A program made the translations under genes and the position numbers. Source: an uncultured Bacteriovorax sp. (lineage in GTDB: Bacteria > Bdellovibrionota > UBA1018). From it: a stretch of DNA of 64,000 bases. Shown in pieces: positions 13,401 to 41,395 of the stretch. The stretch lies in NCBI GenBank assembly GCA_964432565.1, contig CAYSOA010000005.1, positions 24,022-88,021 of the forward strand, in the 5' to 3' direction. The notes beneath the pieces were generated by a model. It was not told where the DNA came from, ran no database searches, and was given only the letters and a program-made list of their open reading frames with translations. Every line of letters starts with the position of its first letter. The stretch's first letter is position 1.

Positions 13401-14023
13401 AAGAGTTCAATTCGTACAGGGTGTCCGTCACCGCGGGCGGCTGGGAGATAGATGTCGATAATCTCTCCCCGTACTGAGAAGTTGCCCGGGTCTTCGACGG
13501 AATCGGCGCGAGTATAGCCCGCGGCGACAAGACGAGAGACGAGCTCTTCTCGAGATCCGATGGACATCCCAGCGCGAAGCGGCACGGACGTCCGCTCGAG
13601 AACTTCCGGAGGAATTGTTCTCAAGAGCGCGGACTGGAGGGTGGTCAGCACAATCGATGGAGACGGGCTGCTCGACCTCCGGCGCTGCAGGAGTTGAGAA
13701 AGTGCTCCTGCTCGTTGGAGTCGGGAGCGAATGGAAGGAGAAATGGAGGTAAAAAGACTGCGGTCAAACCCTGGAAACAGGAGAATGGCGGGATCGTCCT
13801 CTCCCTTCGAGGGTGGGATGAGACGGGATAGCTCCTCAAGATCGTTTGCCAGCTCGGAGGCAACCTCTTCGTCCGGGCAAAATACCAGCATCTGGCCGCC
13901 AAAGCGGCGGGAATACCGCAGAAGGAGCCATGCGCGGGAGGACCCTTCCAGCCCCGTGACCCGAACGGGGTCGCCGAGGCCTGAGCAATCCTCAAGGATT
14001 TCTTCGAGAGAACTGGTGATCAT
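10448..14023 (-). CDS. mfd: Transcription-repair coupling factor
   Basis: 1191 aa. Superfamily-2 helicase motifs ([27 protein letters not shown]), a UvrB-homology N-terminal region and a TRG/C-terminal domain. Confidence 0.9.
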
Positions 14024-14047
14024 AAAATCCTCAAGAATTTACAGACC

Positions 14048-14076
14048 TTGACACACTTTTTCAACTTCAGTAGCGT
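14048..14076 (+). promoter_or_regulatory. Candidate sigma70-type promoter for the nuo-like set-1 cluster (divergent from mfd)
   Basis: Perfect TTGACA at 14048-14053, a 17-nt spacer, a weak -10 TAGCGT at 14071-14076, then SD AAGGAGAG and ATG 14104. Confidence 0.25.
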
Positions 14077-14103
14077 TTCTGCGCATCGGGATAAGGAGAG
14101 TCT

Positions 14104-14550
14104 ATGGCCGGGATGGCCGCAGGAAACCATGGGTGGTTAGATTACTCGATCTTGCTTTTTCTTGCTGCTTTTGCGGTGGCGTTGCCGTTGCTGCTTCAGT
14201 TCGGGGCCCGGCTGCTTCGCTCAAAAGAACTTCAGCGAGATAGTTCGAAAGAAGGCGACTGCTTTCATGTCGAGCGAGATATCCCGACGAACCAATCCAT
14301 TCATACTCGCTATTTTTCGGCGGTCCAGGTCGGATCAGCCTGGGCCCTTCCGCTCGGTCTCTTGATCCCCATCGCGCACCCCGAAGTAAAAGAGTCGATC
14401 TATGCCACGATTTCCCTGCTGACGATTTGTCTGACCATGGGGGTTGCTCTCATCTATTTGAATCGCAAGGGTGACCTGAAGTGGATGGACTCAACCGGTA
14501 ACCCCGCAGACGACCGGGACACTGACTCTGAAGAAGAGGGCGCCGTTTGA
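14104..14550 (+). CDS. NuoA-like small membrane subunit of a paralogous complex-I-like set (set 1)
   Basis: 148 aa, 3 TM, heads a cluster of nuo homologs. Similar to canonical NuoA at 23559 but without a recognisable FD(V/I)E motif. Has an acidic C-terminal tail. Confidence 0.5.
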   Translation: MAGMAAGNHGWLDYSILLFLAAFAVALPLLLQFGARLLRSKELQRDSSKEGDCFHVERDIPTNQSIHTRYFSAVQVGSAWALPLGLLIPIAHPEVKESIYATISLLTICLTMGVALIYLNRKGDLKWMDSTGNPADDRDTDSEEEGAV

Positions 14551-15071
14551 TGAAGTCCTGGATAAGTCGGAGGATCGAGACATTGACCCGCTGGGCGGAC
14601 GCGAGCGCCCTACGTTATTTTCACGTCAAGGGTCTGTGTTGTTCGGATGAGTTTACCCAGACCGTAGCGGCCCGCTATGATCTAGAGAGATTCGGAGCGA
14701 TGCAGGAGGCCGACCATCGATCTGCGGACGTTCTCGTGGTCAGTGGGGCGATCAGCAGTGCTGCTGCCGAGCATCTGAGAACCATTTACGCAGAGATGAC
14801 TTCACCCCGATGGGTGATTGCCATCGGCAGCTGCGCCTGTTCGGGAGGTCTCTTCTCCCCTTCCAATGGCGGTGAGGCTCTTGCTGGGGTTTCTTCGGTT
14901 ATTCCGGTCGACGTCTTTGTGGTGGGCTGCCCCCCTCGTCCCGAAGCGATCATCGATGGCTGGATCCTTCTTCAGAAGAAGATTCAGGGACAAGTCACCG
15001 ACAGGACGGTTCGGAAAAAGAAGCGTCTTCCCGACAACCTGCTTCTGCAGGAAGACGGAGGCCCCGGATGA
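14547..15071 (+). CDS. NuoB-like subunit (set 1) retaining N2-cluster cysteines
   Basis: Motifs GLCCSDEF, GSCACSGG and VGCPP align with canonical [17 protein letters not shown] and PGCPP. ATGA overlap with the upstream gene. Confidence 0.7.
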   Translation: MMKSWISRRIETLTRWADASALRYFHVKGLCCSDEFTQTVAARYDLERFGAMQEADHRSADVLVVSGAISSAAAEHLRTIYAEMTSPRWVIAIGSCACSGGLFSPSNGGEALAGVSSVIPVDVFVVGCPPRPEAIIDGWILLQKKIQGQVTDRTVRKKKRLPDNLLLQEDGGPG

Positions 15072-16186
15072 ACGAGGCAGTGCTGGCGCGCAGAATTTCC
15101 TGGAGGATCGGACCGTTTCACTCGGCCTTGCCAGGGCCATTCGTGCTGGATTTGGAACTGGACGGAGAAGTCATCGCGGAGGCCCGGGCGACGGCAGGGT
15201 ATGGCGCCCGCGGCATCGAGTCCGTGATGCGACGGCTGGGCTGGGAGCAGGGGATTCCCGTAATGGACAGGCTCGACCCTGATTCAGGGATCTTCGGGGA
15301 GTGGGCTTATTGCCTAGCCATCGAACGTGCAATGGACATTGAAGTACCCGCCCGGGCAGTGGCGACTCGAGTCCTTCTTGGCGAACTTGTTCGGGTTTCC
15401 GCCCATCTGGCCCAGCTTGCCAGGGTTGCCCGTGAGGCGGGCTCAGAGATTGTTTTTCACTTCATGCTTCGAGAGCGGGAGCTCCTGCTGGATCTGATCG
15501 AGCTGGTGACGGGGGCTCGTCACTCCCCGGCCTTCCTGAGGATCGGGGGAGTTCGCGCCGATGTCAGTGAGGGATTCCTTGAGCGGCTACAGGAGACGAG
15601 TCAGGTGATTCTTGGACGAGTCGCAGAATACAATGATCTCCTTACCTATAATCAGGCATTCGTTCGCCGTGTGTCGGGAAGGGCCGTTCTCTCGGAGCAG
15701 CTGATTCGCGAGCACGGAATCAGTGGGATACCGCTTCGTATCGTCGACGATTCATCCGACCTGAGGTGGAGGGGGGAGATCGGAGGATACGATATGGTGC
15801 CTCATCAGCCTGTTTCTGCAGGAAGCCCGCTAGGAATAGCGGGGGACCTTCATCATCGTTTCGTCTTCCGGCTTCAAGAGGTGATTCAGAGCATCCAGAT
15901 CTGCCGCGAACTTTGTCAGAACCTTCCGGGCGGAGATCTTCGGGCCGATGTGGATCTGGCAAGAGTTCCGGCCGGGCGCCATTCGGCCCGAGTGGAGGCA
16001 CCACGGGGGCTTTTTCAGGTCACCGTCGAGTCTGATGGGTCGGCGAGACCGAAGGCGATCGAGTTCAGCACGCCGTCCGACGCCCTATTCTCTGCCATTC
16101 CGAAGATCCTTCAAGGGGCCCCTCTCGAGGACTTGGGGCTCTGGCTTGCAAGTATCGACCTGCAGATAGGCGAGGTGGACCGATGA
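15068..16186 (+). CDS. NuoD-like subunit (set 1), divergent
   Basis: 372 aa. GPFH, GYGARGIE, RIGGVRADV, VEAPRG and C-terminal IGEVDR align with NuoD (49-kDa subunit / NiFe-hydrogenase large-subunit fold). Lacks the roughly 30-aa N-terminal extension of canonical NuoD. Confidence 0.65.
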   Translation: MNEAVLARRISWRIGPFHSALPGPFVLDLELDGEVIAEARATAGYGARGIESVMRRLGWEQGIPVMDRLDPDSGIFGEWAYCLAIERAMDIEVPARAVATRVLLGELVRVSAHLAQLARVAREAGSEIVFHFMLRERELLLDLIELVTGARHSPAFLRIGGVRADVSEGFLERLQETSQVILGRVAEYNDLLTYNQAFVRRVSGRAVLSEQLIREHGISGIPLRIVDDSSDLRWRGEIGGYDMVPHQPVSAGSPLGIAGDLHHRFVFRLQEVIQSIQICRELCQNLPGGDLRADVDLARVPAGRHSARVEAPRGLFQVTVESDGSARPKAIEFSTPSDALFSAIPKILQGAPLEDLGLWLASIDLQIGEVDR

Positions 16187-17193
16187 ATGATTGGTTCAAG
16201 CTCTGGGTGGATCGCTGTGCTAGCAGCGGAGTATCCGTTGCTCTCTGTCTATTGATTTGCGTCTATCTTGCTGTCTGGATGGATCTGAAGGTCGGTGCCG
16301 ACGTCCAGGCCCGCGTCGGGCCGAATCGAGCCGGTGCCGCCGGGATTCTGCAGCCACTTGCCTCCTGGATACGAGAGCTTCTCAAGTTCTCTCCACATAT
16401 TGGCGGTGCCGGCTTTCAGCGGAGCTGGTGGGCACCCATGATTCCTTTGGTGTTGATGATTGGATTGGTGCCGACTACCGGGGCCGGACCACTCCTTCGA
16501 GCGCCGATGTCCGTGTTTCTGGCCCTTTTTCTGGGTCTCTGCTTTTCGTGCCTGGGTCTGATCATGGGATGGCGCTCAGGGCGCCTGGAGGTGAGGTTTG
16601 CCTCCATTCGAGCGGCATCACTCGCGCTGGCCGCAACGCCGCCAGCCTTGATGGCCATCACAGTGGCCGGCCGTGCTGCGGGAGGATTTTCGTGGGAGGC
16701 CATCGACCAGGCTCAGGGAGCGCTGCCGATGCAGTGGATTGGTTTTTCGGGCGCCTCGGGGCTGCTTGCGTCGGTGATCTTTCTTCTCGCAGGGATGCTG
16801 CTCTTTCTAATGCCCCCCTTTTCAAGTACCGGTCGAAACCTCAAACTCCTGATGAGTGCGATGGTTGGACCTGTTGGAGCACGGCAGCTCTGGGTGGAGC
16901 TGTCTGTTCGTGGTGCGGCGACCTGCTGGATGCTGCTTGCCGCGCATCTTTTTTGGGGCGGATCAAGAATTCCGCTGTGGCTGGAGCAGTTTCTAGGACC
17001 TGCTTCGCTCGCCACCAGGACCGTCGAGCTAGGTGTCATCTCCGCTAAGGTTCTTCTAATCCACCTGTTGATGTCACTGATGTCGAGGATGATGCCGACG
17101 GTGCGATCGGATCAGGCGCATGACTTCGCCTGGCGAGTGTTGACTCCGGCGGCACTGCTTTCTCTTGTCATGATGAAGCTGGGGGGCGCGTGA
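16183..17193 (+). CDS. NuoH-like membrane subunit (set 1)
   Basis: RVGPNRAGAAGILQPLASWIRELLKF matches the NuoH motif (RxGPNxxGxxGLLQPxAD). Polytopic. Confidence 0.6.
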   Translation: MNDWFKLWVDRCASSGVSVALCLLICVYLAVWMDLKVGADVQARVGPNRAGAAGILQPLASWIRELLKFSPHIGGAGFQRSWWAPMIPLVLMIGLVPTTGAGPLLRAPMSVFLALFLGLCFSCLGLIMGWRSGRLEVRFASIRAASLALAATPPALMAITVAGRAAGGFSWEAIDQAQGALPMQWIGFSGASGLLASVIFLLAGMLLFLMPPFSSTGRNLKLLMSAMVGPVGARQLWVELSVRGAATCWMLLAAHLFWGGSRIPLWLEQFLGPASLATRTVELGVISAKVLLIHLLMSLMSRMMPTVRSDQAHDFAWRVLTPAALLSLVMMKLGGA

Positions 17194-17720
17194 AATACGG
17201 ATTCGCTGGCGCCTTTATCGACTATTGGGGTTCGGTCTATCGATCCATTGCCTCCCTTTATCGGGCAGGAAAGGCCGGCGTCGCTTACCTTCGAGTTCGA
17301 AGCGAGACCAAAAAGGAAGTGACGGAGCAGTATCCGGATCCAGTCTCGTCTCGATCCTCCGAGGAGCTTCCGCCGAGAACTCGTGGCAAACTAAGGAACG
17401 ACATCCTCCGATGCACCGGGTGCGGCGACTGTGTGCGGATCTGTCCAACCAAGAGCATTTCCATGGAGACCATGGAGGGTGCAAAGCCAGGCAAGCTCTG
17501 GATTTCGATCTTCAACATCGATCACGCGAGTTGCATCGCTTGTGGACTTTGCGTTGACGTCTGTGAGCCGAGATCTCTGGTCCATGAGCGGGTTCATCAA
17601 GGTGCCGCCGTCAGTATCGAGGAGCATCTCCTGAGTTTTGGCCGGGGGGCGGTGTCCGAGAGCATGAGGGAGCTCTGGAGAAAACAACGCGTATTGGAGA
17701 GTGAAGGAGACCACCTATGA
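17190..17720 (+). CDS. NuoI-like 2x[4Fe-4S] ferredoxin subunit (set 1)
   Basis: Two CxxCxxCxxxCP motifs (CTGCGDCVRICP and CIACGLCVDVCEP). TEQYPDP aligns to canonical TIQYPEE. Confidence 0.65.
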   Translation: MKYGFAGAFIDYWGSVYRSIASLYRAGKAGVAYLRVRSETKKEVTEQYPDPVSSRSSEELPPRTRGKLRNDILRCTGCGDCVRICPTKSISMETMEGAKPGKLWISIFNIDHASCIACGLCVDVCEPRSLVHERVHQGAAVSIEEHLLSFGRGAVSESMRELWRKQRVLESEGDHL

Positions 17721-18220
17721 ATTCCTGGGTGATTGGGGTCTCACTGGGGTTGCTCGCAGTTTCTGCAGCCATCGTGTCTCTTTGGCGGGAGCCCCGCGCC
17801 GGCGCGATCGCAGCCTGGGTCAATGGGTGTGCCGCCGCCTCGGTGATGCTTTTGTTTCAGTCCGAGGTTTTGGCTTTGTTTCTGGCAATCAACTCGACCA
17901 TCGTTGCGCTAGCCGCCTTCTTGAACTCGGACACGATGGCCCTCAAGCCGCCGGAGTCGCACCGGTCGCCTTCCGTGTTCCACGTGAAGAATTGGCTTTC
18001 GCTTCTGGCGAGCGCGGCGCTTGGGGTGACCGTGGTCGGAGTGTTTCGCAGCACGATTCCGGTGCCTTTTGACGAACTTGCCGAGACCACCGCAAATGCC
18101 CTTGTGGGAGCTTCAACCGAGGAGAACCATGTGAGTTACCAGCTGGTTGCCCTGTTGGGACTGGTTGCAACCGTTGGCGCGGCCGTCATTGCCAGGCCGG
18201 AGAGGCCCGAGAATGATTGA
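17717..18220 (+). CDS. NuoJ-like membrane subunit (set 1)
   Basis: 167 aa, hydrophobic with about 5 TM. Its position between the NuoI-like and NuoK-like genes matches canonical order. Confidence 0.45.
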   Translation: MNSWVIGVSLGLLAVSAAIVSLWREPRAGAIAAWVNGCAAASVMLLFQSEVLALFLAINSTIVALAAFLNSDTMALKPPESHRSPSVFHVKNWLSLLASAALGVTVVGVFRSTIPVPFDELAETTANALVGASTEENHVSYQLVALLGLVATVGAAVIARPERPEND

Positions 18221-18506
18221 AGTGTTTGGCGCGTTGTTCGGAATCGGGTTTTTCGGTTTGTTGACCCAGAGATCGCTGGTTTCGGTTTTGTTGAATCTTC
18301 AGGTCATGGTGACGTCGCTGGTCCTAGTGCTGGTGGTCTCATCTCAGACTTTTTCTCCAGTGAGTCGAGAGAGAGCGGGCCACGCAGCACTGGCGATTCT
18401 GCTGGTGTTTGGAATCCAGGTTGCCGCCGCGCTGGCTTACGCGACGCGGCTTCACTATCTGAGGCGACGATCAGGCATGGATGATCTGAAGTCGATGAGG
18501 CACTGA
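18213..18506 (+). CDS. NuoK-like membrane subunit (set 1) with both conserved glutamates replaced by glutamine
   Basis: ATG 18213 overlaps the upstream stop. MIEVFGALFGIGFFGLLTQRSLVSVLLNLQVMV aligns to canonical Nuo[11 protein letters not shown] appears at both positions that are E in canonical NuoK (31597). Confidence 0.55.
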   Translation: MIEVFGALFGIGFFGLLTQRSLVSVLLNLQVMVTSLVLVLVVSSQTFSPVSRERAGHAALAILLVFGIQVAAALAYATRLHYLRRRSGMDDLKSMRH

Positions 18507-18508
18507 GC

Positions 18509-20431
18509 ATGGCGCGACAGTTCTTTCCCTGGATTCTTGTGCTCGCAATCAGTCTCTCCACGGTTTTCGCAATGCTCGGCGGTGGAATTCTGAATCGCTG
18601 GAGGACGCTTTTGAGCGGGCTGTGCTGGGCCGCCTTTCTGGGTTTAATCGCGGCGGCGATGATCATCATGACGGATGGAGGTGGACCGGCGCAATGGGCT
18701 GTGGATTTCATGGCCATTCCGATCAGCGCCGATGCTGCGAGGCTTGGGGTTGAGAACTCGCTGGTAGGCGTTCTGGTCTGCTGGCTGATCGCCCTGGTCT
18801 ACGGTTACGTTTTTTTTCTGGATCCCGCGTTTGGGGACAGATCGTCGGATTTCCGGCCCCAGGGGGGCAGCCACATTCAGGGCTCTGCGTGCCTCGGGAT
18901 GGTTGCCGTCGCGTTGGCCTGGTTTTCCTCGAGTTACTGGACCCTGCTCATGGCACAGGCTCTTTCAGTTTTGGCAGGGTGGACGGTGCTCTCAAGCCTC
19001 GCAAACTCCCGACTTTCTTCGGCGCCGGCATTTGCCCAGATCTCGGTGACCTTTCTTCGAGAGAAGGCTGGCTCCATGGCGCTTTTGATCCTGGGAGGGG
19101 GAATTTGCGCTTCGTCCGGCGCTTCGTTGGACTGGACCCGCACATCGCTTCATCTTCTTCCCGTCTCCGGTGTCGCGCTGATTCTCTTTGGGTGTCTTCT
19201 TCAGATGGGGATGTTTCCCGCAATCAGCTGGAATACTCGCCTGACAGGAGGGTGCAGCCTCCCGTCGAGCGTTCGGCTCCTATTGGTCAACCCGGCACAA
19301 TGGGTCTCTTTTGTCGTTGTTCTTCGTCTGTTCGGGACAGGTACCGTCCAGTTTCAATCGCTAGCCATGCCGATTCTTGTGGCAGTTCTCTTGACTACCC
19401 TTGTGGCGTTAGTCGCCAAACCTGCTCAGGCGGCGCTCACCCATGTCAGTGCCTCCCTCTCGGGACTGGCAGTGGCGGTACTGCTTCTTGCGGGAGTCCG
19501 GCAAGGAGCAGCGTTTTTCCTGACAAGCCAGCTGCTCCTCTGGGGGGCAGCCCTATTCCTGCGTCGCCCGTCCACAGGAACCCGTCTGGGACGGATCGAT
19601 CACTGGGTGGCAGGGCTATTGCCTCTCGCAATCTGCGCGGGGCCCGGAACGGTTTCTGCCGCGGCGTTGCTCGCATTATTGGAGGGATCGAGATCCTCTA
19701 TCATCCTCTCCCTTTCTGTGGCGGCCTGGATATTCTTCTCGCTTGCGATGGTTCGAGCGATGGCTCTGGGTGCTGCACCGACCGAGGGCACAGTCGAACA
19801 GGAGCTCGGCATGACGGATCGAACCTCGGCAGGATGGCGGGCGACGCCGGCCGTTGTTTTGGCCCTGATTTCGACGTCGATTCTCTGGACGGGAGACCTT
19901 GTGGGACGATTTTCGGGCCACGAGTTCGCCCCCGTCGGGCCAAACTGGTCGGGGGCGCTCTTTGGCACCGAGACCCTCGCTTTCCGATCAGCGCCGATGG
20001 ACTCGATCGTCTGGGGCTGGATGCTCACTCTCGTGGTTTTGGTGTCAGTCGATTCGGGCAAGCGCCTCGCACGAGCTGAATTGGGATTTCTTCGACTGGC
20101 GTCGGACGGCTATCGCGTTTCGATGCTCGTCGACCGCACCCTTCAACTGATGGTGCGAGCGCTGCTTCGCGCGGACCGTGGTCTGGCCATGATTGAGGCG
20201 CACGCGACAGACCTGGCACTGGCGCGAGGGTTCGGCTGGGTCTGTAGCGCGACTGCCGCTGCAGATCGCTGGTTGAGAGATCGGTTCGATCGGTTGGTCC
20301 GTGGAGCCATTGAAATACCGGCAAAGGGTGTTCAGTTACTGCAGGCGGGAAGTGTGCAGTTCTACATTCTGTTTGCGGTTGGATTCGTTTTGGCCATGTT
20401 GCTACATTTCTGGAGCCATCTGAACAGCTGA
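18509..20431 (+). CDS. NuoL-like antiporter-family subunit (set 1), highly divergent
   Basis: 640 aa, about 14+ TM, with a long C-terminal region. Motif LAGWTVLS aligns to canonical FLGWEGVG (TM5 Glu absent). Confidence 0.5.
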   Translation: MARQFFPWILVLAISLSTVFAMLGGGILNRWRTLLSGLCWAAFLGLIAAAMIIMTDGGGPAQWAVDFMAIPISADAARLGVENSLVGVLVCWLIALVYGYVFFLDPAFGDRSSDFRPQGGSHIQGSACLGMVAVALAWFSSSYWTLLMAQALSVLAGWTVLSSLANSRLSSAPAFAQISVTFLREKAGSMALLILGGGICASSGASLDWTRTSLHLLPVSGVALILFGCLLQMGMFPAISWNTRLTGGCSLPSSVRLLLVNPAQWVSFVVVLRLFGTGTVQFQSLAMPILVAVLLTTLVALVAKPAQAALTHVSASLSGLAVAVLLLAGVRQGAAFFLTSQLLLWGAALFLRRPSTGTRLGRIDHWVAGLLPLAICAGPGTVSAAALLALLEGSRSSIILSLSVAAWIFFSLAMVRAMALGAAPTEGTVEQELGMTDRTSAGWRATPAVVLALISTSILWTGDLVGRFSGHEFAPVGPNWSGALFGTETLAFRSAPMDSIVWGWMLTLVVLVSVDSGKRLARAELGFLRLASDGYRVSMLVDRTLQLMVRALLRADRGLAMIEAHATDLALARGFGWVCSATAAADRWLRDRFDRLVRGAIEIPAKGVQLLQAGSVQFYILFAVGFVLAMLLHFWSHLNS

Positions 20432-20442
20432 GGACGCAGACA

Positions 20443-22035
20443 GTGACCCTACCCCTACTGACAGCGATGATTCTAACGCCCCTTGCAGGTGCCGCGGTGC
20501 AGGCGATGACGCCGAGGCAACCGTTGTCGCGGCTGCTAGCCCTCTCCAGCAGCTTGATTTCAGCCATCATCGGTTTCGCGGTGCTGGCTGGGGCTTTTTC
20601 GGCCGATGACCCCGAATCCTTTCCGGAAAGATTCTCCTGGGTGGGATCCTATGCGATCTCCTACGATCTCGCCGTCGATGGCATGGCTCGGATTGCCGTA
20701 CTCATCGTCAGTGTCCTGTTTCCGGTCCTGATTGCCGCCGAATGGCGCCGATCGTCAGGGTTCCGGGGGTTTTACGCCCTTTTGCTCGTTCTTCAGGGTG
20801 CACTTCTGGGAACGGTCTGCGCTCAGGATCTTTTTCTTCTGTTCTTCTTCTGGGGCCTTTCCTCAGTGCCTGTGTTTTTTCTGGTCGGCGTGTGGGGGGC
20901 GGACGGACGTGAGGCGGCCGCCTTTCGAACGCTGGTCACCTCAGCGGCAGGTAATGCGCTGTTCTTCGGAGCGTTGATGCTGGTCTACCACGCGAGAGAC
21001 CCTCACACCTTTTCGATCGCCGAGCTCACTGGAGGATTGCTTCCAGAGCGGTCGATTTCGGTGGCTGGAGTCTCATTTTCTCTCGCGCATGTTTCTTTCC
21101 TGTTGGTCTGCCTTGGCGTGGCCCTCCGAGTCCCGGTCTGGCCGTTCCACGGCTGGTTCACTCGGCTTGCCGATGCCGCTCCTCCTACCGCGGCTGTTGC
21201 CGTTGCCGCCGCGATTGTTCCCTGCGGCGTGCAGATTCTTACCAGGCTGGGTCACCAGCTCTTTCCCAACAGCTTTTCAAATTATTCTGACGTGATCGTG
21301 CTGGTAGGGCTCGTCAATTTGATCATTGGTGCGCTCGCTGCGTTCGGGCAGCGAAAGCCGACGTCGCTTTTCTCGAGCCTCGTGCTTGCGGAGGTCGGTA
21401 TCTACCTGGTGGGCCTGGGGAGCAGCCATCCCAGTGCATTGCTAGGAACAGTTTATCATCAGCTTTGTAGTGCCCTGGCTCTGGCAGTGCTCGGGCTGCT
21501 ATTCGGCTCGATTTACCAGAAGAGTCCTCAGATCGACCTTCTGAGTCAGCGCTCGGGATCGGCTGCGCTCATGAGCGATGCACCTGTTGCGGGTGTCGTG
21601 ATGGCCTTGTCGCTGGCGACGCTGGCAGGGGTTCCCGGGCTGGGGGGGTTCATCGGACAGAGTCTGGTGCTCATGGGCGGGTTCGTGCGCTCGCCGATGA
21701 TACTGGCGCTGGTCGGCATGTCGGTTCTTCTGATCGGCATATGCCTTTTTGGAACGTACCGGGTGCTGTTTCTTGGTGGGGGGACCCAGGGGCGTTCCGG
21801 GGAGTCTCACGAGCTTTCATTCCGAGAGAAAACTTACCTCATCCCTCTGGTGGTTCTGATGGTTGCTCTGGGTGTTTATCCCAAGCCCCTCCTCGACGTC
21901 ATTCACCCGGCGACGGATCGTCTGGTAGTTTCGGGCACCGATGTTCCTCGTGATGTCGGTGGAGCACCAGACTCCGGGATCTTGCCGAACGGTGAGCAGC
22001 CCCCCATCGTCGAGTCGTCGGAAGCCCGGGAATGA
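20443..22035 (+). CDS. NuoM-like antiporter-family subunit (set 1), divergent
   Basis: 530 aa polytopic. FFWGLSSVPVFFLVGVWG aligns to canonical FWEFMLIPMYFLIGIWG. ALRVPVWPFHGWF aligns to AIKVPLFPLHTWL. Confidence 0.5.
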   Translation: MTLPLLTAMILTPLAGAAVQAMTPRQPLSRLLALSSSLISAIIGFAVLAGAFSADDPESFPERFSWVGSYAISYDLAVDGMARIAVLIVSVLFPVLIAAEWRRSSGFRGFYALLLVLQGALLGTVCAQDLFLLFFFWGLSSVPVFFLVGVWGADGREAAAFRTLVTSAAGNALFFGALMLVYHARDPHTFSIAELTGGLLPERSISVAGVSFSLAHVSFLLVCLGVALRVPVWPFHGWFTRLADAAPPTAAVAVAAAIVPCGVQILTRLGHQLFPNSFSNYSDVIVLVGLVNLIIGALAAFGQRKPTSLFSSLVLAEVGIYLVGLGSSHPSALLGTVYHQLCSALALAVLGLLFGSIYQKSPQIDLLSQRSGSAALMSDAPVAGVVMALSLATLAGVPGLGGFIGQSLVLMGGFVRSPMILALVGMSVLLIGICLFGTYRVLFLGGGTQGRSGESHELSFREKTYLIPLVVLMVALGVYPKPLLDVIHPATDRLVVSGTDVPRDVGGAPDSGILPNGEQPPIVESSEARE

Positions 22036-23522
22036 ATGCACTGATTTTTCTGCTGCCGGAAATCTACCTCGTTGCGACGGCCCTTGGACTGGTCGTCGCA
22101 GAGAGTTCGCATCATGGTGAGCGAGTGAGGCTGGCGCTGCCCACCAGTCTCCTAGGAATTTCGGGAGCATTGATTCAGGTGCTTTTGTCCTACCGCGGTG
22201 GCCCCACCCAGATCTTTGCCGGCACCTTGACCGTCGATGGTTTCACCCTATTCTTCAAGATGCTCTTTCTGGCGCTAGCGGCAATTGTCGTGACCTCCGC
22301 CTGTATCGGGCACGAAATTCCACGAAGGCTGCGTTCGGAGTTCTGCTCGTTGGCGCTTCTTGGAACCGTGGCATTGATGCTGGCGGCAAGTTCCTCCAAT
22401 CTTTTCGTCACCGTTCTGGCACTTCAACTGGCCGGGTGTGTGGGCTATTTTCTGGCCGGATTTCAGAAAGAGAGTGCCCGGTCGGCCGAAGCTTCGGTGA
22501 AGTGGATGATGTCTTCCCTGGTTTCGGGGGTGTTTCTGCTTCTTGGGGCGATGGTTCTGTTCCTGATGACCGGAACCGTGAACCTCTATGAGCTCAGCCA
22601 GCTTCTGTCGGCCGGGGGATATTCAGCCCGCGAGGCGGTTCTGGTTTTTTCGATCATTTTTCTGGGTCTCAGCATGCCGATGATGATCTTCCCAGGACAT
22701 CTTTGGGCGGCTGATGTCCTGCAGGGGGCCAATACTGCGGCAGGGACCTACCTTGCTGCCGGCCTCAGAGCGGCCACCTTCGCCGTTGCCTCCAGGGTTT
22801 GGGTCATTGTTTTTTCCAGCGCCAACGGCGACTCGGGCCGCTGGCTGCCGATGGGAGGATGGGACTGGACCCGCTGGTTGGGGTTTAGTGCGGCAATGAC
22901 TTTGGTGCTTCCCGCCCTGATGAGTGTGCGCCAGCAGAGTGCAAAACGGCTGCTGGCCTGCGTCGCCACAGTTCAGGGTGGCTTTCTGCTGCTTGGCCTG
23001 CTGGTCCTCGAAGAGATCGGGCTTGCAGCCGTGCTCTTCGGACTGCTGGTGGAACTTTTGTCCTTTGGTGGTCTGATGTTCGTGCTGTCATTGGCGGTGT
23101 CACGGAGCGGCTCAGATGAGCTCGACCGGCTTCGGGGCTGCCTTCGTGGTCGTCCATGGGAATCCGTGGCACTTCTGCTTTGCTCGATCGCATGGGTGGG
23201 CCTGCCACCCTTTGCAGGGCAGATCGGAAGGTTCGCCTTGATGGGGGCTGCAGTCCGGCGGGAGTGGTTCATTCTTGCCTTCGTGGGGCTTCTGGCGACC
23301 GTTTTAACGGTTGGGGCAATGGGGCGCCTCATGCTGACGGTGCTGGACCTGGGCGGTGAGTCGCGATCCCGGGTGGTTCAGGGGAGCGCTGGCCTCGAGC
23401 GCACTCCTTTCGATGTGCGGAGCTTTCTTGTCGGAGTTCTGGTGCCGTTGGCTACGGTCACCATTTTGGCGGACTGGCTCTTGCGGTGGACCAGCCATTC
23501 CCTGAAGTTTATTTTCTGGTAG
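22032..23522 (+). CDS. NuoN-like antiporter-family subunit (set 1), divergent
   Basis: 496 aa polytopic. N-terminal LPEIYLVATALGL is like NuoN. VLALQLAGCVGYFLAGF aligns to canonical IALELMSISVYVLVGF. Confidence 0.5.
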   Translation: MNALIFLLPEIYLVATALGLVVAESSHHGERVRLALPTSLLGISGALIQVLLSYRGGPTQIFAGTLTVDGFTLFFKMLFLALAAIVVTSACIGHEIPRRLRSEFCSLALLGTVALMLAASSSNLFVTVLALQLAGCVGYFLAGFQKESARSAEASVKWMMSSLVSGVFLLLGAMVLFLMTGTVNLYELSQLLSAGGYSAREAVLVFSIIFLGLSMPMMIFPGHLWAADVLQGANTAAGTYLAAGLRAATFAVASRVWVIVFSSANGDSGRWLPMGGWDWTRWLGFSAAMTLVLPALMSVRQQSAKRLLACVATVQGGFLLLGLLVLEEIGLAAVLFGLLVELLSFGGLMFVLSLAVSRSGSDELDRLRGCLRGRPWESVALLLCSIAWVGLPPFAGQIGRFALMGAAVRREWFILAFVGLLATVLTVGAMGRLMLTVLDLGGESRSRVVQGSAGLERTPFDVRSFLVGVLVPLATVTILADWLLRWTSHSLKFIFW

Positions 23523-23558
23523 CTCGCTCTTCTTCCGCTGCGCTATAACCCAGAAGCA

Positions 23559-23918
23559 ATGGAATACATTCCGGTTCTGATCCTGATGGCCGTCGGTACG
23601 GCGGTCGGGGTGGGCGCGATGACGTTGTCGGCCCTCCTTGGACCCAAAGCCCCTAATCGACGCAAGAATATGCCGTTCGAGTGTGGTGTCGAGCCGCATG
23701 GCGATGCACGACACCGATTCTCGGTGCGTTTCTATCTTGTTGCGATTTTGTTTCTACTTTTTGATGTCGAGGCACTGTTCTTCTATCCATGGGCGGTTGT
23801 TTATAAGAAATATCTGAGCATCAACGCCTTCATTCTTTTTGAGATGGCGGCGTTCGTGCTCATCCTTCTGGTGGGTTATCTCTACGTCCTGGGCAAAGGT
23901 GCCCTCGAGTGGGATTAG
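23559..23918 (+). CDS. nuoA: NADH-quinone oxidoreductase subunit A
   Basis: Canonical NuoA motifs PFECGVEP and [15 protein letters not shown]. Confidence 0.9.
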
Positions 23919-23955
23919 ACCCCGTCTTCGAATTTCATCGAGAGGCGCAACAAGT

Positions 23956-24468
23956 ATGTCTAAAGACGGATCATCCAGCTTCCTGACAACCAAACTCGAG
24001 GCGATTGTGGACTGGGGTCGCAAGAATGCCCTGTGGCCGCTGCCCTTCGGTACCAGCTGCTGCGGCATCGAGATGATGGCCACTTTTGCTGCGGACTACG
24101 ATATCGGCCGCTTTGGTGCCGAGGCCCTGCGCTTCTCCCCGAGGCAGGCGGACCTTCTGATCGTTGCAGGGATCGTGAACGCCAAGATGGCCCCGGTTCT
24201 CAAGAATATCTACGACCAGATGGCCGATCCCAAGTGGGTTATCTCAATGGGGGCCTGCGCGTCATCGGGAGGCATTTTCAACGTGTATAGTGTCACCCAG
24301 GGTATCGACACCATCATCCCAGTGGACGTCTACGTTCCGGGTTGTCCTCCGGCGCCCGAAGGGGTCCTTCATGGGCTGATGCGCCTTCAGGAGCTGATCC
24401 AGAAGGGCGAGACCCATCACCACCGATGCGAGCGGGCCCGACGTGCAGGAAAGGAGGCCCAGTCATGA
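23956..24468 (+). CDS. nuoB: NADH-quinone oxidoreductase subunit B
   Basis: [22 protein letters not shown] and [10 protein letters not shown] 23956 follows SD GAGG, whereas the ORF-track start 23839 adds a non-homologous extension. Confidence 0.9.
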
Positions 24469-25043
24469 GGGGTGCAGACATTCGGACTCCCGTGTCGACA
24501 GTTTACGGCGATTTCTCGAAGAAGTTCGCAGAGACTTGGAAGTCTCAGGTTCAGGAGCTGCAACAGAGATTCGGGGCCGTCATTGAAGAGGTTCGATGGC
24601 CCGGTGTTTACCCCACCGATGTTCCCATTGTCTTTGTGGCTCGCGAGTCGATCGTCGATGTGCTTCGGGTCCTTAAGGAAGAGTCCGCGTTCCGGTATGA
24701 CTTTCTGGCAGACATCACGGCGACGGATGAGGAAGTAGAGCCGCGCTTCGAGGTGGTCTACAACCTGGCGTCGATTGCATCGGGGTCGCGGATTCGCGTC
24801 AAGGTTCGAGCGCGTGAAGACGAGCAAGTCCCGTCTGTGACCGTTGTTTGGGCCGGAGCAGACTGGGCTGAGCGCGAGGTATGGGACATGTTTGGGATCC
24901 GCTTTCGCGGCCACCCGGATCTGCGCCGGATTCTGATGGATGAGCGCTGGGAGGGACATCCCCTGCGCAAGGATTACCCTCTTCGTGGCTATCAGCTTTT
25001 TCCAGATACCCAGCCCATCAACGTCGAACTGCTCAAGGATTGA
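24465..25043 (+). CDS. nuoC: NADH-quinone oxidoreductase subunit C
   Basis: 30-kDa-subunit family ([22 protein letters not shown]). ATG 24465 follows SD AAGGAGG and overlaps the nuoB stop. Confidence 0.85.
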
Positions 25044-25046
25044 TCG

Positions 25047-26318
25047 ATGGAACAGCAAAGACCGCATGGAGAGTTCGGGCTTCCCGCATCTGACAACTAT
25101 ACGATCAGCGTGGATGTTCCAGCGCATGAGCACGATCCGGATGACCTTTGGAAGGATTCGAGGGTTTTCGTCAATATCGGCCCCACCCACCCAGCCATGC
25201 ACGGCGCATTGCGGATGTGCGCCCGGTTGAATGGCGAAACGATCGAAAAGTCCTATTGCGAGTTTGGCTACACACACCGGGCAAAAGAGAAGCTCGGAGA
25301 GAATCGCACCTACCACAACTTTATCGTTTATACGGACCGGCTGAACTATTGCTCGGCACTGATCAACAATGTGACCTATGCCATGGCGGTGGAGCGCCTC
25401 ATGGGCATTGAGGTTCCCGATCGCGCCGTGTGGATTCGCATGATCTGCACCGAGATGGCTCGCGTCATCGATCACTTGATTTGTGTTGGCGTCAACGCGC
25501 TCGATCTCGGCGCTTTTTCTTTCTTCCTGTATGGCTTTCATCAGCGAGAAGAGGCCTACACCCTGATCGAGAAGATTTGTGGAGCGCGCCTGACGACCTC
25601 CTACACCCGAATCGGCGGTTTGATGGCGGATGCTCCCGCAGGCTGGGAGAAGGAAGTCAAGGACTGGGTCATTCGTACCCGGAAGACAGTTCAAGAGATG
25701 GACTCTCTTCTGACCAATAATCGCATCTGGTGCGACCGCACCCAGGGTGTCGGGGTATTCACGAAAGATCAGTGCATGAAGTACAGCTATTCGGGGCCGA
25801 ATGCCCGGGCGGCCGGTATCAATCGCGACCTCCGTCGCGATCAGCCTTCCATGTTCTACGACAAGGTCGAGTTTGATGTCCCTGTCGGAAAGAATGGCGA
25901 CGTCTTTGATCGTTACATGGTCCGAATGGCCGAGATCTTTCAGTCTCTCAACATCATCGCCCAGTGCGCGGAAAAGATGCACCCCGGGCCGATCTGGTCC
26001 GAGGACAAGCGAATCCGCATTCCGGACAAGGACGTCGTTCACAACACGATGGAAGGCCTGATCCACCACTTCAAGTTCTTCATGACGGGCTTCGACGTTC
26101 CTGCTGGTGAGGCGTACACGAGCTTCGAGGCGACCAATGGCGAGCTCGCTTTCTATATTGTCAGCAAGGGTGGACCGAGAGCCCATCGTATGCGAATCCG
26201 CGGACCATCGGTTTGGCACTACCAGGGCCTGAGCGAGATGTCTGAAGGGGCGAAGATCGCCGACATGGTTGCGGCGCTCGGTTCGATCAATATCATCGCA
26301 GGCGAGCTGGATCGCTGA
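25047..26318 (+). CDS. nuoD: NADH-quinone oxidoreductase subunit D
   Basis: 423 aa with GPTHPAMHG, RLNYC, RIGGLMAD and a C-terminal IIAGELDR. Confidence 0.9.
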   Translation: MEQQRPHGEFGLPASDNYTISVDVPAHEHDPDDLWKDSRVFVNIGPTHPAMHGALRMCARLNGETIEKSYCEFGYTHRAKEKLGENRTYHNFIVYTDRLNYCSALINNVTYAMAVERLMGIEVPDRAVWIRMICTEMARVIDHLICVGVNALDLGAFSFFLYGFHQREEAYTLIEKICGARLTTSYTRIGGLMADAPAGWEKEVKDWVIRTRKTVQEMDSLLTNNRIWCDRTQGVGVFTKDQCMKYSYSGPNARAAGINRDLRRDQPSMFYDKVEFDVPVGKNGDVFDRYMVRMAEIFQSLNIIAQCAEKMHPGPIWSEDKRIRIPDKDVVHNTMEGLIHHFKFFMTGFDVPAGEAYTSFEATNGELAFYIVSKGGPRAHRMRIRGPSVWHYQGLSEMSEGAKIADMVAALGSINIIAGELDR

Positions 26319-26329
26319 GGAGGAAGACG

Positions 26330-26803
26330 ATGTCCAAGCTTCTGTCCCAAAAGTTTTATGACGAGATGAATAAGCTCGAGCCACGCTATCCAACCAAGGT
26401 GGCGCTGCTCTTGCCGGCACTTCATGCGGCGCAGTCGGAGTTCGGCTGGTTGCCGGGTGAAGTCATGGACGAGATCGGTGAGTACATCGGAATTCACCCG
26501 GCGCAGGTGCGCGAGGTGGCCAGCTTTTACACGATGTACAATCTCAAGCCCGTCGGAAAATACCACCTGAAGATCTGCACGAATGTAGCGTGCTGCCTGC
26601 GTGGGGCTGATGAGCTGGTGGAGCACTGCGAGAAGAAGTTCGGCATCCAGTGCGGCGAAACCACCCCGGACAAGCGCTTTACCCTGATGGAAGAAGAGTG
26701 TCTCGGTGCCTGTGGGACGGCCCCCGCCATGATGTTGAACGATGACTACCACGAGAATCTGACCGCCGAGAAGCTGGACCAGCTCTTGGCAGGCCTGAAA
26801 TGA
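26330..26803 (+). CDS. nuoE: NADH-quinone oxidoreductase subunit E (24 kDa, [2Fe-2S])
   Basis: Cys pattern CTNVACCLRG...CLGACGTAP typical of NuoE. Confidence 0.85.
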   Translation: MSKLLSQKFYDEMNKLEPRYPTKVALLLPALHAAQSEFGWLPGEVMDEIGEYIGIHPAQVREVASFYTMYNLKPVGKYHLKICTNVACCLRGADELVEHCEKKFGIQCGETTPDKRFTLMEEECLGACGTAPAMMLNDDYHENLTAEKLDQLLAGLK

Positions 26804-28092
26804 GCGAGGAACGGGCGATGTCTGAATCCACTCCAATGTTCAAGCCGCACTTCCATGAGGAGGCGCGTCCACTCGCCTATTATCTGGCGAAAATGAATGG
26901 CTATACGGCGTTGAAGAAGGCACTTGGGATGGCGCCTGACGCCATCATCGACGAGATGAAGAAGTCCAACATGCGAGGCCGCGGTGGCGCAGGTTTTCCC
27001 ACCGGCATCAAGTGGGGATTTATCCCGAAGCAGAGCTCCAAGCCGAAGTATCTGGTCTGCAATGCCGATGAGTCGGAGCCCGGAACCTTCAAGGATCGGG
27101 ACATCATGCGCTACACGCCACACCTGCTCATCGAGGGCATGGTGATCGGGGCGCATGCCATTGGAGCAAACAGTGGTTATATCTATATTCGGGGGGAATA
27201 TACCCGAGAGGCGCGCCTCCTGAATGAGGCCATCGATGAGGCCTATGACAAGGGTTATCTCGGCAAGAACATCCTGGGCTCGGGATTTCACTTCGACCTG
27301 ACGGTACATCGTGGGGCCGGCGCCTACATCTGCGGAGAGGAGACCGCACTGCTGAACTCCCTTGAGGGCAAGCGCGGCGAGCCTCGGGTGAAGCCGCCGT
27401 TTCCGGCACAATCCGGAGCCTTTGCCGGTCCGACCATTGTGAACAATGTCGAAACCCTTGCAGCAGTTCCCATGATCATCAACGAGGGTGGCGAGTGGTT
27501 TGCCAAGCTTGGCAGGCTTGAGAAGTCGGGTGGTACCCGTCTCCTGTCGGTTTCAGGCCATGTCAAGAAGCCCGGCGTGTACGAGATTGGCGCGGGCAGC
27601 ATGACCATTCGGCAGATCATTTTTGATCTGTGCGGAGGAGTCCTGGGCGACAAGAAGTTGAAGGCCGTCATTCCCGGCGGATCTTCGGCTCCGGTGCTCA
27701 CCGCTGACGAAATCGACGTGATTTACGACATTGAGCCCCTGATGAAGATCGGCTCAATGATGGGGTCGGCCGCACTGATGGTGGTCAGCGAGGATTACTG
27801 CGTGGTGAAGCTGATCAAGCGCATCACGAAGTTCTATGAACATGAGTCCTGCGGGCAGTGCACGCCGTGCCGAGAGGGTTGCAAGTGGATGGAGGATATC
27901 CTTCATCGCATCGAGCACGGCCACGGCCGCGAGCAGGATCTGGATCTGCTTTTAGACATCGCAGAAAACATCAACGGAAAGACGCTTTGCGCGCTGGGCG
28001 ATGCCGCCGCAGGCCCGGTCTCCAGTTTCGTGAAGAAGTTTCGCGCCGACTTTGAAGCGCACATTCGAGGTGGAAAATGCCCAAATGCATAA
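26800..28092 (+). CDS. nuoF: NADH-quinone oxidoreductase subunit F (51 kDa; NADH/FMN/[4Fe-4S])
   Basis: GRGGAGFPTGIKW, GEETALLNSLEG and C-terminal CGQCTPCREG. Confidence 0.9.
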   Translation: MSEERAMSESTPMFKPHFHEEARPLAYYLAKMNGYTALKKALGMAPDAIIDEMKKSNMRGRGGAGFPTGIKWGFIPKQSSKPKYLVCNADESEPGTFKDRDIMRYTPHLLIEGMVIGAHAIGANSGYIYIRGEYTREARLLNEAIDEAYDKGYLGKNILGSGFHFDLTVHRGAGAYICGEETALLNSLEGKRGEPRVKPPFPAQSGAFAGPTIVNNVETLAAVPMIINEGGEWFAKLGRLEKSGGTRLLSVSGHVKKPGVYEIGAGSMTIRQIIFDLCGGVLGDKKLKAVIPGGSSAPVLTADEIDVIYDIEPLMKIGSMMGSAALMVVSEDYCVVKLIKRITKFYEHESCGQCTPCREGCKWMEDILHRIEHGHGREQDLDLLLDIAENINGKTLCALGDAAAGPVSSFVKKFRADFEAHIRGGKCPNA

Positions 28093-29477: not shown

Positions 29478-30598
29478 TGGAAACGATTCTTTCGATTTGG
29501 ACACAAAATGCCGAGTTCATCATCACTGCCGTCAAGGCGGTGGTGGTGGCCCTGACCTTGCTGCAGGTAGTGCCTTTGATGGTCTGGCTGGAGCGGCGCG
29601 GCTCAGCAGTCATGCAGAAGCGACTCGGACCGAATCGTCTCGGACCACTCGGTCTGTTTCAGGGGATCGCCGACGGAATCAAGGCTGTGTTCAAGGAGGA
29701 CAATCCTCCGGCGCATGTGCATAAGTTCTTTTACCGGCTGGCCCCGGTCGTCTGCCTGATTCCAGCCTACATGACTTTTGCCGTGATTCCTTTTGCGAGC
29801 TCCATCACGATCGGCGGCTACGTCATCAACTTCCAGATAGCCGACCTAAACGTGGGCTTTCTCTACATCTTTTCGATCGCATCGCTCGGCGTCTACGGGA
29901 TCATCATGGCGGGGTGGTCCTCGAACAACAAGTACTCGCTACTCGGAAGCCTGCGCTCGTCGGCACAGATGATCAGCTATGAACTTTCGCTCGGGCTGTC
30001 GGTGATCGGCATCCTGATGATTTTCTCCAGCGTGCGCCTCGGAGACATCGTGCTTCAGCAGGGAGAGTTGCTGCTCCAGCTCGGACCATTGTCGATTCCG
30101 AAGTGGGGTTTCTTCGTTCAGCCAGTGGGTTTTCTGATCTTTCTGGTTTCGGCTTATGCCGAGACCAATCGCCTCCCCTTTGACCTTCCTGAGGGTGAGT
30201 CGGAGATCGTAGCCGGCTATCACCTCGAATATGGTTCGATGCACTTCGCGCTGTTCATGATGGCCGAGTACATCAACATGACGGTGGCGGCGGCCTTGAC
30301 GGTGACCCTGTTCTTTGGCGGCTGGCAGATGCTGCCGGGGATGCCGGCACTTCACAGTCTTCTGGTGGAGAATCTCGGCCTCGTCGGTCTTGCTTCGGAT
30401 GCCGTCCGAGTGCTGTTCGAGCTGGGCTCCTTTGTAATGAAGACCGCGTTCTTCCTGTGGCTCTTCGTCTGGGTTCGCTGGACGCTTCCGCGATTTCGTT
30501 ATGACCAGCTGATGGATCTCGGATGGCGGGTGATGCTGCCGTTGTCGTTGCTCAATATCTTCGTTACCGGCGTTTTGATTTACTACAAGGTGGTTTGA
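29477..30598 (+). CDS. nuoH: NADH-quinone oxidoreductase subunit H
   Basis: LERRGSAVMQKRLGPNRLGPLGLFQGIADGIK. ATG 29477 overlaps the nuoG stop. Confidence 0.9.
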   Translation: METILSIWTQNAEFIITAVKAVVVALTLLQVVPLMVWLERRGSAVMQKRLGPNRLGPLGLFQGIADGIKAVFKEDNPPAHVHKFFYRLAPVVCLIPAYMTFAVIPFASSITIGGYVINFQIADLNVGFLYIFSIASLGVYGIIMAGWSSNNKYSLLGSLRSSAQMISYELSLGLSVIGILMIFSSVRLGDIVLQQGELLLQLGPLSIPKWGFFVQPVGFLIFLVSAYAETNRLPFDLPEGESEIVAGYHLEYGSMHFALFMMAEYINMTVAAALTVTLFFGGWQMLPGMPALHSLLVENLGLVGLASDAVRVLFELGSFVMKTAFFLWLFVWVRWTLPRFRYDQLMDLGWRVMLPLSLLNIFVTGVLIYYKVV

Positions 30599-30600
30599 AG

Positions 30601-31911: not shown

Positions 31912-31915
31912 TGCC

Positions 31916-35423: not shown

Positions 35424-35434
35424 AGGGATTTGAA

Positions 35435-40057: not shown

Positions 40058-41395
<1,338 letters not shown>

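Follow-up and report, generated by a model that had tools for sequence, protein, structure and literature searches.

A second nuo gene set in Bdellovibrionota keeps the iron-sulfur ligands of complex I and lacks its canonical quinone-site and proton-pumping residues

Background

The stretch of DNA analyzed here, 64,000 nucleotides of contig CAYSOA010000005.1 (assembly GCA_964432565.1, positions 24,022 to 88,021) from an uncultured Bacteriovorax sp. of the Bdellovibrionota, is referred to as the window. Direct reading of its open reading frames (ORFs) and their translations revealed two nuo gene sets arranged in tandem on the plus strand between 14104 and 36970. The downstream one, set-2 (23559-36970), is a canonical nuoA-N operon of 14 genes, including nuoC and nuoEFG, whose products are recognized by Pfam with strong scores; it is the presumed partner of set-1. 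The upstream one, set-1 (14104-23522), is the subject of this work and comprises ten genes, nuoA-B-D-H-I-J-K-L-M-N, in the order known from NUO11-type complex I and without nuoC, nuoE, nuoF and nuoG. The sole NuoC-like coding sequence of the window is the set-2 gene located at 24342-25043. Adjacent ORFs of set-1 mostly overlap by 4-8 nt and every one of them is intact. Annotation pipelines label these genes as subunits of NADH-quinone oxidoreductase.

Cyanobacterial NDH-1 is the solved example of the 11-subunit class of complex I, which has no NuoEFG. An earlier reading of the locus (here called the original prediction) covered four of the ten set-1 genes and dealt with the iron-sulfur (Fe-S) ligands and the quinone site; the losses in the membrane arm described below lie beyond that span. 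In this work we have analyzed all ten subunits of set-1, their conservation among relatives and their genomic context, and weighed the roles that such a complex might play.

Methods

The set-1 subunits and their orthologues from related loci (numbered with the prefix L) were aligned with the Nuo proteins of Escherichia coli (locus L082) and of set-2, and the functional residues were read off the alignments. Positions in the NuoD-like protein of set-1 (D1) were mapped by phmmer against solved complex I structures and by MAFFT together with Thermus Nqo4, E. coli NuoCD and the window's own canonical NuoD (D2). The Nqo4 reference has 409 residues, as does PDB 2fug_4, and its own numbering yields His38, Tyr87 and Asp139 as published. 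The word-index protein search, which returned 17 relatives of D1 and 2 relatives of the NuoL-like protein (L1), undercounts the family, and the count was corrected by an exhaustive search of representatives.

Results

The nuoD-like gene (15068-16186, plus strand, as are all set-1 genes) encodes D1, a protein of the short type (372 amino acids, aa) that was characterized by alignments, an AlphaFold2 model and Foldseek. The model has a predicted local distance difference test score (pLDDT) of 92.2 and a predicted template modelling score (pTM) of 0.91, and its top Foldseek matches are complex I 49-kDa/NuoCD chains (TM 0.91); judged by this model, D1 is a properly folded short-type NuoD. It is devoid of an insertion of ~27 residues that is present in the NuoD of E. 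coli, Thermus and set-2, and its C-terminus reads DLQIGEVDR. Residues 15-23 of D1 are GPFHSALPG and residues 68-73 are RLDPDS, which phmmer pairs with GPQHPAAHG and DRLDYVS of the solved 49-kDa subunits; D2 (25047-26318) has GPTHPAMHG and RLNYCS. Pro22 (codon 15131-15133) occupies the position of Thermus Nqo4 His38 and Pro71 (codon 15278-15280) that of Tyr87. The original prediction had put proline at both sites, and in this the phmmer and MAFFT alignments to the Nqo4/NuoD references agree with it, neither His nor Tyr being found at the equivalent positions. Asp139, the partner of His38, corresponds to Glu123 in D1 and to Ala or Val in most relatives, and Thermus His169, located next to cluster N2, is likewise not conserved in set-1 NuoD. 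The position of Thermus Leu138 is taken by an Arg. No NiFe cysteines were found in D1 when the RxCGxC and DPCxxC motifs were examined.

Both His38 and Tyr87 are invariant in canonical NuoD (53/53) and absent from the set-1 NuoD proteins (0/17), in which the His38 position is Pro in 17 of 17 and the Tyr87 position Pro in 15 of 17 and Tyr in none; because of this difference, the substitutions in the aligned sequences are not attributable to chance. An exhaustive profile search yielded ~35 representatives (50% identity clusters) without both residues. In this wider family the His38 position may be occupied by P, V, I, L, M, Q, N or S and the Tyr87 position by P, S, G, A, T or F, and such free variation suggests that constraint on these two sites has been lost rather than that the pocket has been redesigned there. 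The idea that Pro22 and Pro71 constitute a designed new pocket was rejected on the same ground.

The conserved NuoD residues specific for the wide family are only Phe76, His131 (at the position of Thermus Phe147) and Leu146. In D1 itself Glu127, His131 and His262 are family-specific and correspond to Thermus Leu143, Phe147 and Phe273, sites which canonical NuoD fills with hydrophobic or aromatic residues. Glu127 is found in 94% of the close family, and His131 in 100% of the close family, 83% of the wide family and none of 71 canonical sequences. Both map to the helix which bears Asp139 in canonical NuoD, their placement in the cavity being derived from helical periodicity, and His131 may be part of a new polar site.

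The Fe-S subunits present the opposite picture of conservation. The NuoB-like protein (14547-15071; 174 aa), which is matched by PF01058 and scores above the cut-offs of NCBIfam NuoB subfamily models, has the N2 ligands C31 and C32 (GLCCSDEF), C96 (IGSCACSGG) and C128 (VVGCPPRPE), aligned with E. coli NuoB C63, C64, C129 and C158; the tandem CC, the GSCACSGG cysteine and the GCPP cysteine are thus all where the original prediction had placed them. The four cysteines are kept in 17/17 members of the set-1 family and in three deeper ones. The NuoI-like protein (17190-17720; 176 aa), matched by Pfam, has both [4Fe-4S] motifs, CTGCGDCVRICP and CIACGLCVDVCEP, with the spacing C75-x2-C78-x2-C81-x3-C85-P and C115-x2-C118-x2-C121-x3-C125-E-P. 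Each of the members compared (14/14) has all eight cysteines, as expected from the original prediction; its description of two CxxCxxCxxxCP motifs needs correction for the second motif, which ends in CEP and not in CP. The 12 Fe-S cysteines of NuoB and NuoI are present in every member examined, across lineages which share only ~25-50% identity. The surroundings of N2 in the NuoB-like protein (E67, D77, R80, D94 and E163 in E. coli numbering) are near-invariant across 20 members. Across the deep family there are 35 near-invariant positions in NuoB, nearly all of them common to canonical NuoB, and 39 in NuoI, and these two proteins are the most conserved and constrained subunits of set-1.

The remaining genes encode the membrane subunits: nuoA-like (14104-14550; 148 aa with three hydrophobic segments), nuoH-like (16183-17193; 336 aa), nuoJ-like (17717-18220; 167 aa), nuoK-like (18213-18506; 97 aa from ATG 18213), nuoL-like (18509-20431; 640 aa, L1), nuoM-like (20443-22035; 530 aa) and nuoN-like (22032-23522; 496 aa). 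In E. coli numbering, both E36 and E72 of NuoK are replaced by Gln in set-1, NuoA D79 by Ala or Val and E81 by Pro or Leu (Ala and Pro in the window), NuoJ Y59 by Ser and NuoH E157 by Thr or Ala, and the acidic TM5-6 loop of NuoH (E216, E218, E220, E228) is gone. In NuoM, E144 has become Gly, Ala or Ser, K234 Arg (10/10), K265 Pro (10/10) and E407 Gln or Asn; the window protein has E144G, K234R, K265P and E407Q, and among the deeper members K234R recurs in 3/3 and K265P in 2/3. In NuoN, E133 is replaced by Gln or Leu, K217 by Pro or Gln and K247 by Arg, with K158, D229, K295 and usually K395 kept; the window protein has E133Q, K217P, K247R and K395R and keeps K158, D229 and K295. In NuoL, E144, D178, K229 (Gln in 9/9), H254, H334, H338, K342, K399 and D400 are all gone. 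The motifs that anchor these readings, FFFW[E to G/A/S], A[K to R]xPxWPxHGW, GF[V/I]G[E to Q/N] and GxxxQxQxFP, are unambiguous, and the NuoL result is upheld by hhalign.

Other parts of the membrane arm are kept. The NuoH-like protein retains the residues which dock the peripheral arm (R46, K70, R148, K274, R293 and D295), and L1 retains the C-terminal region where NuoL carries the lateral helix and the last transmembrane helix. The share of canonical-invariant charged positions that are kept by the majority of set-1 sequences is 74% in NuoD, 50% in NuoB, 50% in NuoN, 43% in NuoI, 37% in NuoH, 33% in NuoK, 32% in NuoM, 14% in NuoJ, 9% in NuoL and 0% in NuoA. No new conserved chain of titratable residues was found in the set-1 membrane subunits.

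Loss-of-function mutations known for E. coli complex I include E144A and K234A/R in NuoM, E36Q in NuoK and changes of Tyr273 and His228 in NuoCD. The set-1 substitutions coincide with the positions of these crippling mutations. According to a review of the superfamily, complex I, MBH and MBS have all preserved the central charged axis, which plays a key part in coupling (PMC8165549). Since every element of the coupling path has been hit at once, and the axis is maintained in all three of these systems (PMC8165549), it is very likely, as judged from the residues, that set-1 has lost canonical quinone reduction and proton pumping.

The divergence of the set-1 proteins is also reflected in their recognition by profile collections. 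Pfam recognizes B, D, H, I, K (PF00420), M and N (both PF00361), the NuoH-like protein scoring 93.6 bits with PF00146 vs 385.6 bits for set-2 NuoH, and finds no match in A, J and L. Among the set-1 proteins only NuoB exceeds a curated NCBIfam cut-off, which it does with two subfamily models. The scores of D, H, I, K, M and N stay under all of these cut-offs, and for A, J and L no Nuo model scores high enough to pass. Profiles built from the family connect A1, J1 and K1 with NuoA, NuoJ (E 1.2e-8) and NuoK, the A1 profile matching NuoA only, and weakly (E 0.002). A profile-against-sequence search gave no link between L1 and NuoL; profile-profile comparison of the L1 family with canonical NuoL by hhalign did find one (probability 98.6%, E 7.6e-16, 528 columns, reaching E. 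coli residue 597). The listed nuoK ORF begins at a TTG at 18147, within nuoJ; initiation at ATG 18213 gives a protein of 97 aa, which matches the gene call in a 90%-identical contig, L083.

Comparison with contig L083 gave ratios of nonsynonymous to synonymous substitution rates (dN/dS) of 0.20 for A, 0.11 for B, 0.09 for D, 0.13 for H, 0.07 for I, 0.29 for J, 0.05 for K and ~0.10 for the start of L; the neighbouring mfd, used as a control, gave 0.16. In a second pair of loci, L001 and L003, dN/dS was 0.07-0.23 for all ten set-1 genes and, in set-2, 0.00-0.02 for A, B and D and 0.11 for C2. Judged by these ratios, the set-1 genes are under clear purifying selection and are not decaying, and pseudogenes or relaxed decay have been ruled out by dN/dS together with the conserved synteny described below. 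The rate at which set-1 evolves is close to that of Mfd and far above that of set-2, the identity among relatives being 39-61% for D1 vs 71-93% for D2. Synonymous divergence between L001 and L003 was 1.1-2.1 in set-1 (L001 8887-18356) vs 0.35-0.68 in the adjacent set-2 (L001 18360-20968), and the low value for set-2 could be due to strong codon bias of set-2 or to its recombination between lineages.

In a scan of one genome per species, members of the D1 family turned up in 14 genome assemblies (L002-L015), of which 13 carry the label of metagenome-assembled genomes (MAGs) and L008, "Bdellovibrionota bacterium FG-2", does not; their taxonomic labels are Bdellovibrionia, Oligoflexia, Bacteriovoracaceae, Bdellovibrionales and similar, and one is merely Pseudomonadota. 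L001-L015 originate from lakes, groundwater and streams. A set-1 locus of the same synteny occurs in at least 18 further assemblies, among whose contigs are ones of 1 Mb and 396 kb; 14 of these assemblies are labelled as Bdellovibrionota or its classes. All loci with enough flanking sequence have uvrA-pgm-pdxA-surA-surA-mfd on one strand, followed by set-1 and then set-2, the spacer between the sets being 36 bp in the window and 34-59 bp in relatives. The deeper members L084, L085 and L086 share this synteny as well as all 12 cysteines and the losses of pump residues. One of them, L086 (10001-11131), keeps Tyr87 (TLDYLS) and has Val at the His38 position, with the pump residues gone. Because of this intermediate, a stepwise order can be proposed in which the loss of Tyr87 probably followed that of the pump residues and His38. 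Several lineages have retained a set-1 NuoC, and there it is less constrained than any other subunit; L014 has a reduced form, and the window's clade, L013 and L084 have none. NuoC2 is always present.

Outside its own family D1 matches best, at 207-181 bits, the short-type NuoD proteins encoded in NUO11 operons of Ca. Hakubella, Actinomycetota and Dehalococcoidia. The operons of these nearest ordinary relatives have the gene order ABCDHIJKLMN and are devoid of EFG. D2, with 135 bits, is the weakest of the 68 NuoD matches to D1. Since D1 is closest to the NuoD of NUO11 operons and least similar to D2, set-1 is, as far as protein similarity tells, a NUO11-type lineage and not a recent copy of set-2; a recent tandem duplication of set-2 was ruled out by the same ranking. 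Tandem arrangements of two NUO11-type nuo sets are also found in an Actinomycetota MAG (L016, 1-11133) and in Ca. Hakubella thermalkaliphila (L021, 146-12475), and in each of them the matched NuoD keeps His38.

Direct reading of the divergent intergenic region (14024-14103) between mfd, on the minus strand, and nuoA1 revealed a TTGACA at 14049-14054 and a strong ribosome-binding site, AAGGAGAG, before the ATG at 14104. The TTGACA may function as part of a promoter; the consensus promoter scan listed no site in this region. Consensus scans of the 36-bp spacer (23523-23558) between nuoN1 and the canonical nuoA2 detected no promoter-like or terminator-like site, and an Rfam scan of 13500-24500 gave no family match. 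Since the spacer is short and devoid of promoter or terminator, co-transcription of set-1 and set-2 is plausible. Within set-2, NuoG (28077-29477) is just 466 aa long and consists of the N-terminal Fe-S domains and a 40-residue fragment of the molybdopterin-like domain, the usual C-terminal domain being mostly missing; nuoH2 starts at its end, at 29462. Directly 3' of nuoN2 there is a gene for a TPR-repeat protein of 1014 aa (37005-40049), followed by that for seryl-tRNA synthetase (40064-41395).

Discussion

Of the eleven genes of NUO11-type complex I, set-1 of the window has ten, in the same order, so that NuoC is the one core subunit of the membrane arm and quinone module without a homologue in it; nuoC is found in set-1 of deeper lineages. 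Set-1 shares with NUO11-type complex I the order A-B-(C)-D-H-I-J-K-L-M-N without the N-module, a short NuoD, a NuoB with the tandem-Cys N2 site and a two-cluster NuoI. It differs from this type in the absence of His38 and Tyr87, of the E-channel and of the antiporter Lys/Glu residues, and in the window's lineage also of NuoC, whereas in the NUO11 loci found (Dehalococcoidia, Actinomycetota and Ca. Hakubella) every clear NuoD-like ORF keeps the His38 equivalent, and Tyr87 where it could be scored. With the canonical 14-subunit enzyme (set-2 and E. coli Nuo) it has in common the fold of D1, the Fe-S ligands, the docking residues of NuoH and the lateral-helix region of NuoL, and it is set apart by the lack of NuoC, NuoEFG, His38, Tyr87, Asp139 and the pumping residues and by its faster evolution.

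A precedent for NuoD without His38, Tyr87 and Asp139 is provided by Sulfolobus, Nautiliales and Desulfurobacteriales, whose NUO11-type operons encode NuoD proteins in which His38 is absent and Tyr87 and Asp139 are replaced by non-hydrogen-bonding residues (Degli Esposti 2015, PMC4758237). These proteins are not believed to react with quinone in the ordinary manner and have been read as ancestral, pre-quinone forms, and those of Nautiliales and Desulfurobacteriales keep vestigial NiFe cysteines at positions 86 and 403 (PMC4758237). D1 differs from the latter in having Asp at 86 and no Cys at 403, and set-1 differs from all three in being a second copy beside a canonical operon and in the loss of pump residues, a feature not reported for those enzymes.

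The complex I-like systems MBS/Mbx and Ehr combine a NuoD homologue devoid of both the NiFe and the quinone site with a retained Fe-S relay; Ehr and MBS are members of the hydrogenase lineage and are believed to be energy-conserving (PMC6349859, PMC8165549). D1 scores 176 bits with complex I 49-kDa chains vs 120 bits with MbhL and 99.8 bits with MbsL, it ends in the GEVDR of complex I, and its genes follow the nuo order; MBS keeps the charged axis, which set-1 lacks. The score, the C-terminal motif, the gene order and the loss of the axis rule out membership in Ehr/MBS (Mbx). Set-1 was also ruled out as a Group 4 membrane-bound [NiFe] hydrogenase, since the ligand cysteines are absent and MbhL and HycE score below the complex I chains, and as an Mrp cation/proton antiporter, since the B/D/H/I module is present and the antiporter Lys/Glu residues are replaced. 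A Peredibacter genome paper describes a different two-cluster nuo arrangement. In searches of the literature on Ehr, on nuo paralogues of Bdellovibrionota and on non-pumping complex I we found no description of the set-1 family, nor of its combination of an intact Fe-S relay, a lost quinone site, pumping axis and NuoC, and a conserved location, as a second copy, before a canonical operon.

The original prediction had taken an intact electron wire and an altered or absent quinone site to suggest another terminal acceptor or a regulatory or structural role. That set-1 is not an ordinary quinone reductase is borne out by its intact Fe-S ligands together with the loss of the canonical quinone-ligating His, Tyr and Asp. 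An energy-conserving enzyme with merely a changed acceptor is disfavoured: a membrane arm without E-channel and antiporter Lys/Glu residues, in a complex without NuoC and NuoEFG, argues against it, and these losses shift the weight to a structural or regulatory role or to uncoupled electron transfer. We therefore tentatively favour, at somewhat less than even odds, the view that set-1 encodes a strongly derived NUO11-type complex I paralogue, an Fe-S-bearing "pseudo-complex I" acting as a structural or regulatory partner of the canonical enzyme. According to this proposal its genes would be co-transcribed with those of the canonical operon, and their products would still assemble as an L-shaped, Fe-S-bearing membrane complex incapable of proton pumping and of quinone reduction in the canonical pocket, in which case its selected role would not be bioenergetic. 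Most likely the complex would contribute, as a partner that contains Fe-S clusters, to the structure or the regulation of canonical complex I, and the clusters would have been retained for structural purposes or for redox sensing. The free variation of the quinone-site positions, the obligatory location of set-1 next to the canonical operon and the retention of the whole architecture speak for it. The positive role is a weaker inference than the loss of catalysis and pumping.

Several points weigh against the pseudo-complex. The strict conservation of NuoB and NuoI, together with His131, fits continued electron transfer at least as well as a structural role, and in one pair of genomes NuoB1 is as conserved as NuoB2 (0.924 vs 0.925). 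A purely structural role does not obviously explain why ~1,660 residues of NuoL, NuoM and NuoN are held at a dN/dS (omega) of ~0.1, and the proposed co-transcription rests on the short spacer and the negative consensus scans. Finally, the Sulfolobus, Nautiliales and Desulfurobacteriales enzymes, whose NuoD is also without His38, Tyr87 and Asp139, are presumed to be active (PMC4758237), and residue loss alone is therefore no proof of lost redox activity.

These considerations make uncoupled electron transfer a serious rival, less probable in our estimate than the pseudo-complex and ranking above all other alternatives. In such an oxidoreductase a ferredoxin-type donor would deliver electrons at NuoI, from where they would pass through clusters N6a and N6b to N2 and on to a non-canonical acceptor in a remodelled pocket or to quinone lower in the tunnel; no ion would be translocated and the membrane arm would serve only as anchor and stabilizer. 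The strictly conserved Fe-S ligands and N2 surroundings, the position of B1 and I1 as the most constrained subunits, the family-specific Glu127 and His131 on the Asp139 helix and the relationship to NUO11 operons, which likewise have no NuoEFG genes, are all in accordance with it. Besides His131, however, no conserved polar residue has replaced His38 and Tyr87, whose positions vary freely, and the placement of Glu127 and His131 in the cavity is deduced from helical periodicity. No gene for a donor or an acceptor is linked to the operon in the loci examined, and anchoring alone ill explains why three large antiporter-like subunits have been kept across >60% sequence divergence. The electron supply could instead come from set-2, if the set-1 core borrowed NuoC and NuoEFG from there to form a hybrid isoform, a non-pumping NADH dehydrogenase serving as a redox valve. 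The two sets are always adjacent and probably share one transcript, NuoEFG is encoded once in the cluster, and the set-1 NuoC has been lost (the window's clade, L013, L084) or reduced (L014) where NuoC2 is invariably there. Such an isoform is nevertheless unlikely: of all NuoD proteins compared with D1, D2 resembles it least (135 vs up to 207 bits), for which reason the docking surfaces of D1 are not expected to match a NUO14-type NuoG and NuoC, and an acceptor would still be needed, none being evident.

Lower still in likelihood stands a working, quinone-reducing and ion-pumping complex I which relies on non-canonical residues. The full subunit set, the kept C-terminal region of NuoL, purifying selection on all subunits and the residues K158, D229, K295 and usually K395 of NuoN could be understood in this way; the match between the substitutions and the loss-of-function mutations of E. 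coli complex I, the simultaneous loss of all elements of the coupling path and the lack of a new conserved titratable chain in the membrane subunits make it very improbable. We give the least credence to a decaying relic or an assembly artefact. It could account for the several times faster evolution of set-1 relative to set-2 (39-61% identity of D1 vs 71-93% of D2), for NCBIfam scores mostly under the curated cut-offs and for the loss of NuoC in some lineages, and is contradicted by ten intact, largely overlapping ORFs that recur in at least 18 independent assemblies, by dN/dS values of 0.05-0.29 and by 12 Fe-S cysteines that have remained invariant at only ~25-50% identity.

Conclusions

The set-1 family has removed the charged axis, the three coupling loops and the quinone ligands; its fold, Fe-S sites and lateral-helix region persist under purifying selection. 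If the complex assembles, it would represent a natural "all-sites-mutated" control for the coupling mechanism and the first sign of a complex I scaffold selected for something besides energy conversion. As the set-1 genes are annotated as NADH-quinone oxidoreductase, metabolic reconstructions from these Bdellovibrionota MAGs would arrive at two complex I enzymes, of which, judging by the residues lost, probably only one is bioenergetically active. On the reading that we cautiously prefer, while giving it slightly less than an even chance, a whole complex I would have turned into a pseudo-enzyme, a full-size paralogue of 10 or 11 subunits, and been kept throughout the history of the lineage as a structural or organizing partner, a redox sensor or regulator of the active enzyme, or an electron buffer. 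Should this prove true, the complex I architecture would have a function beyond those assigned to it so far.

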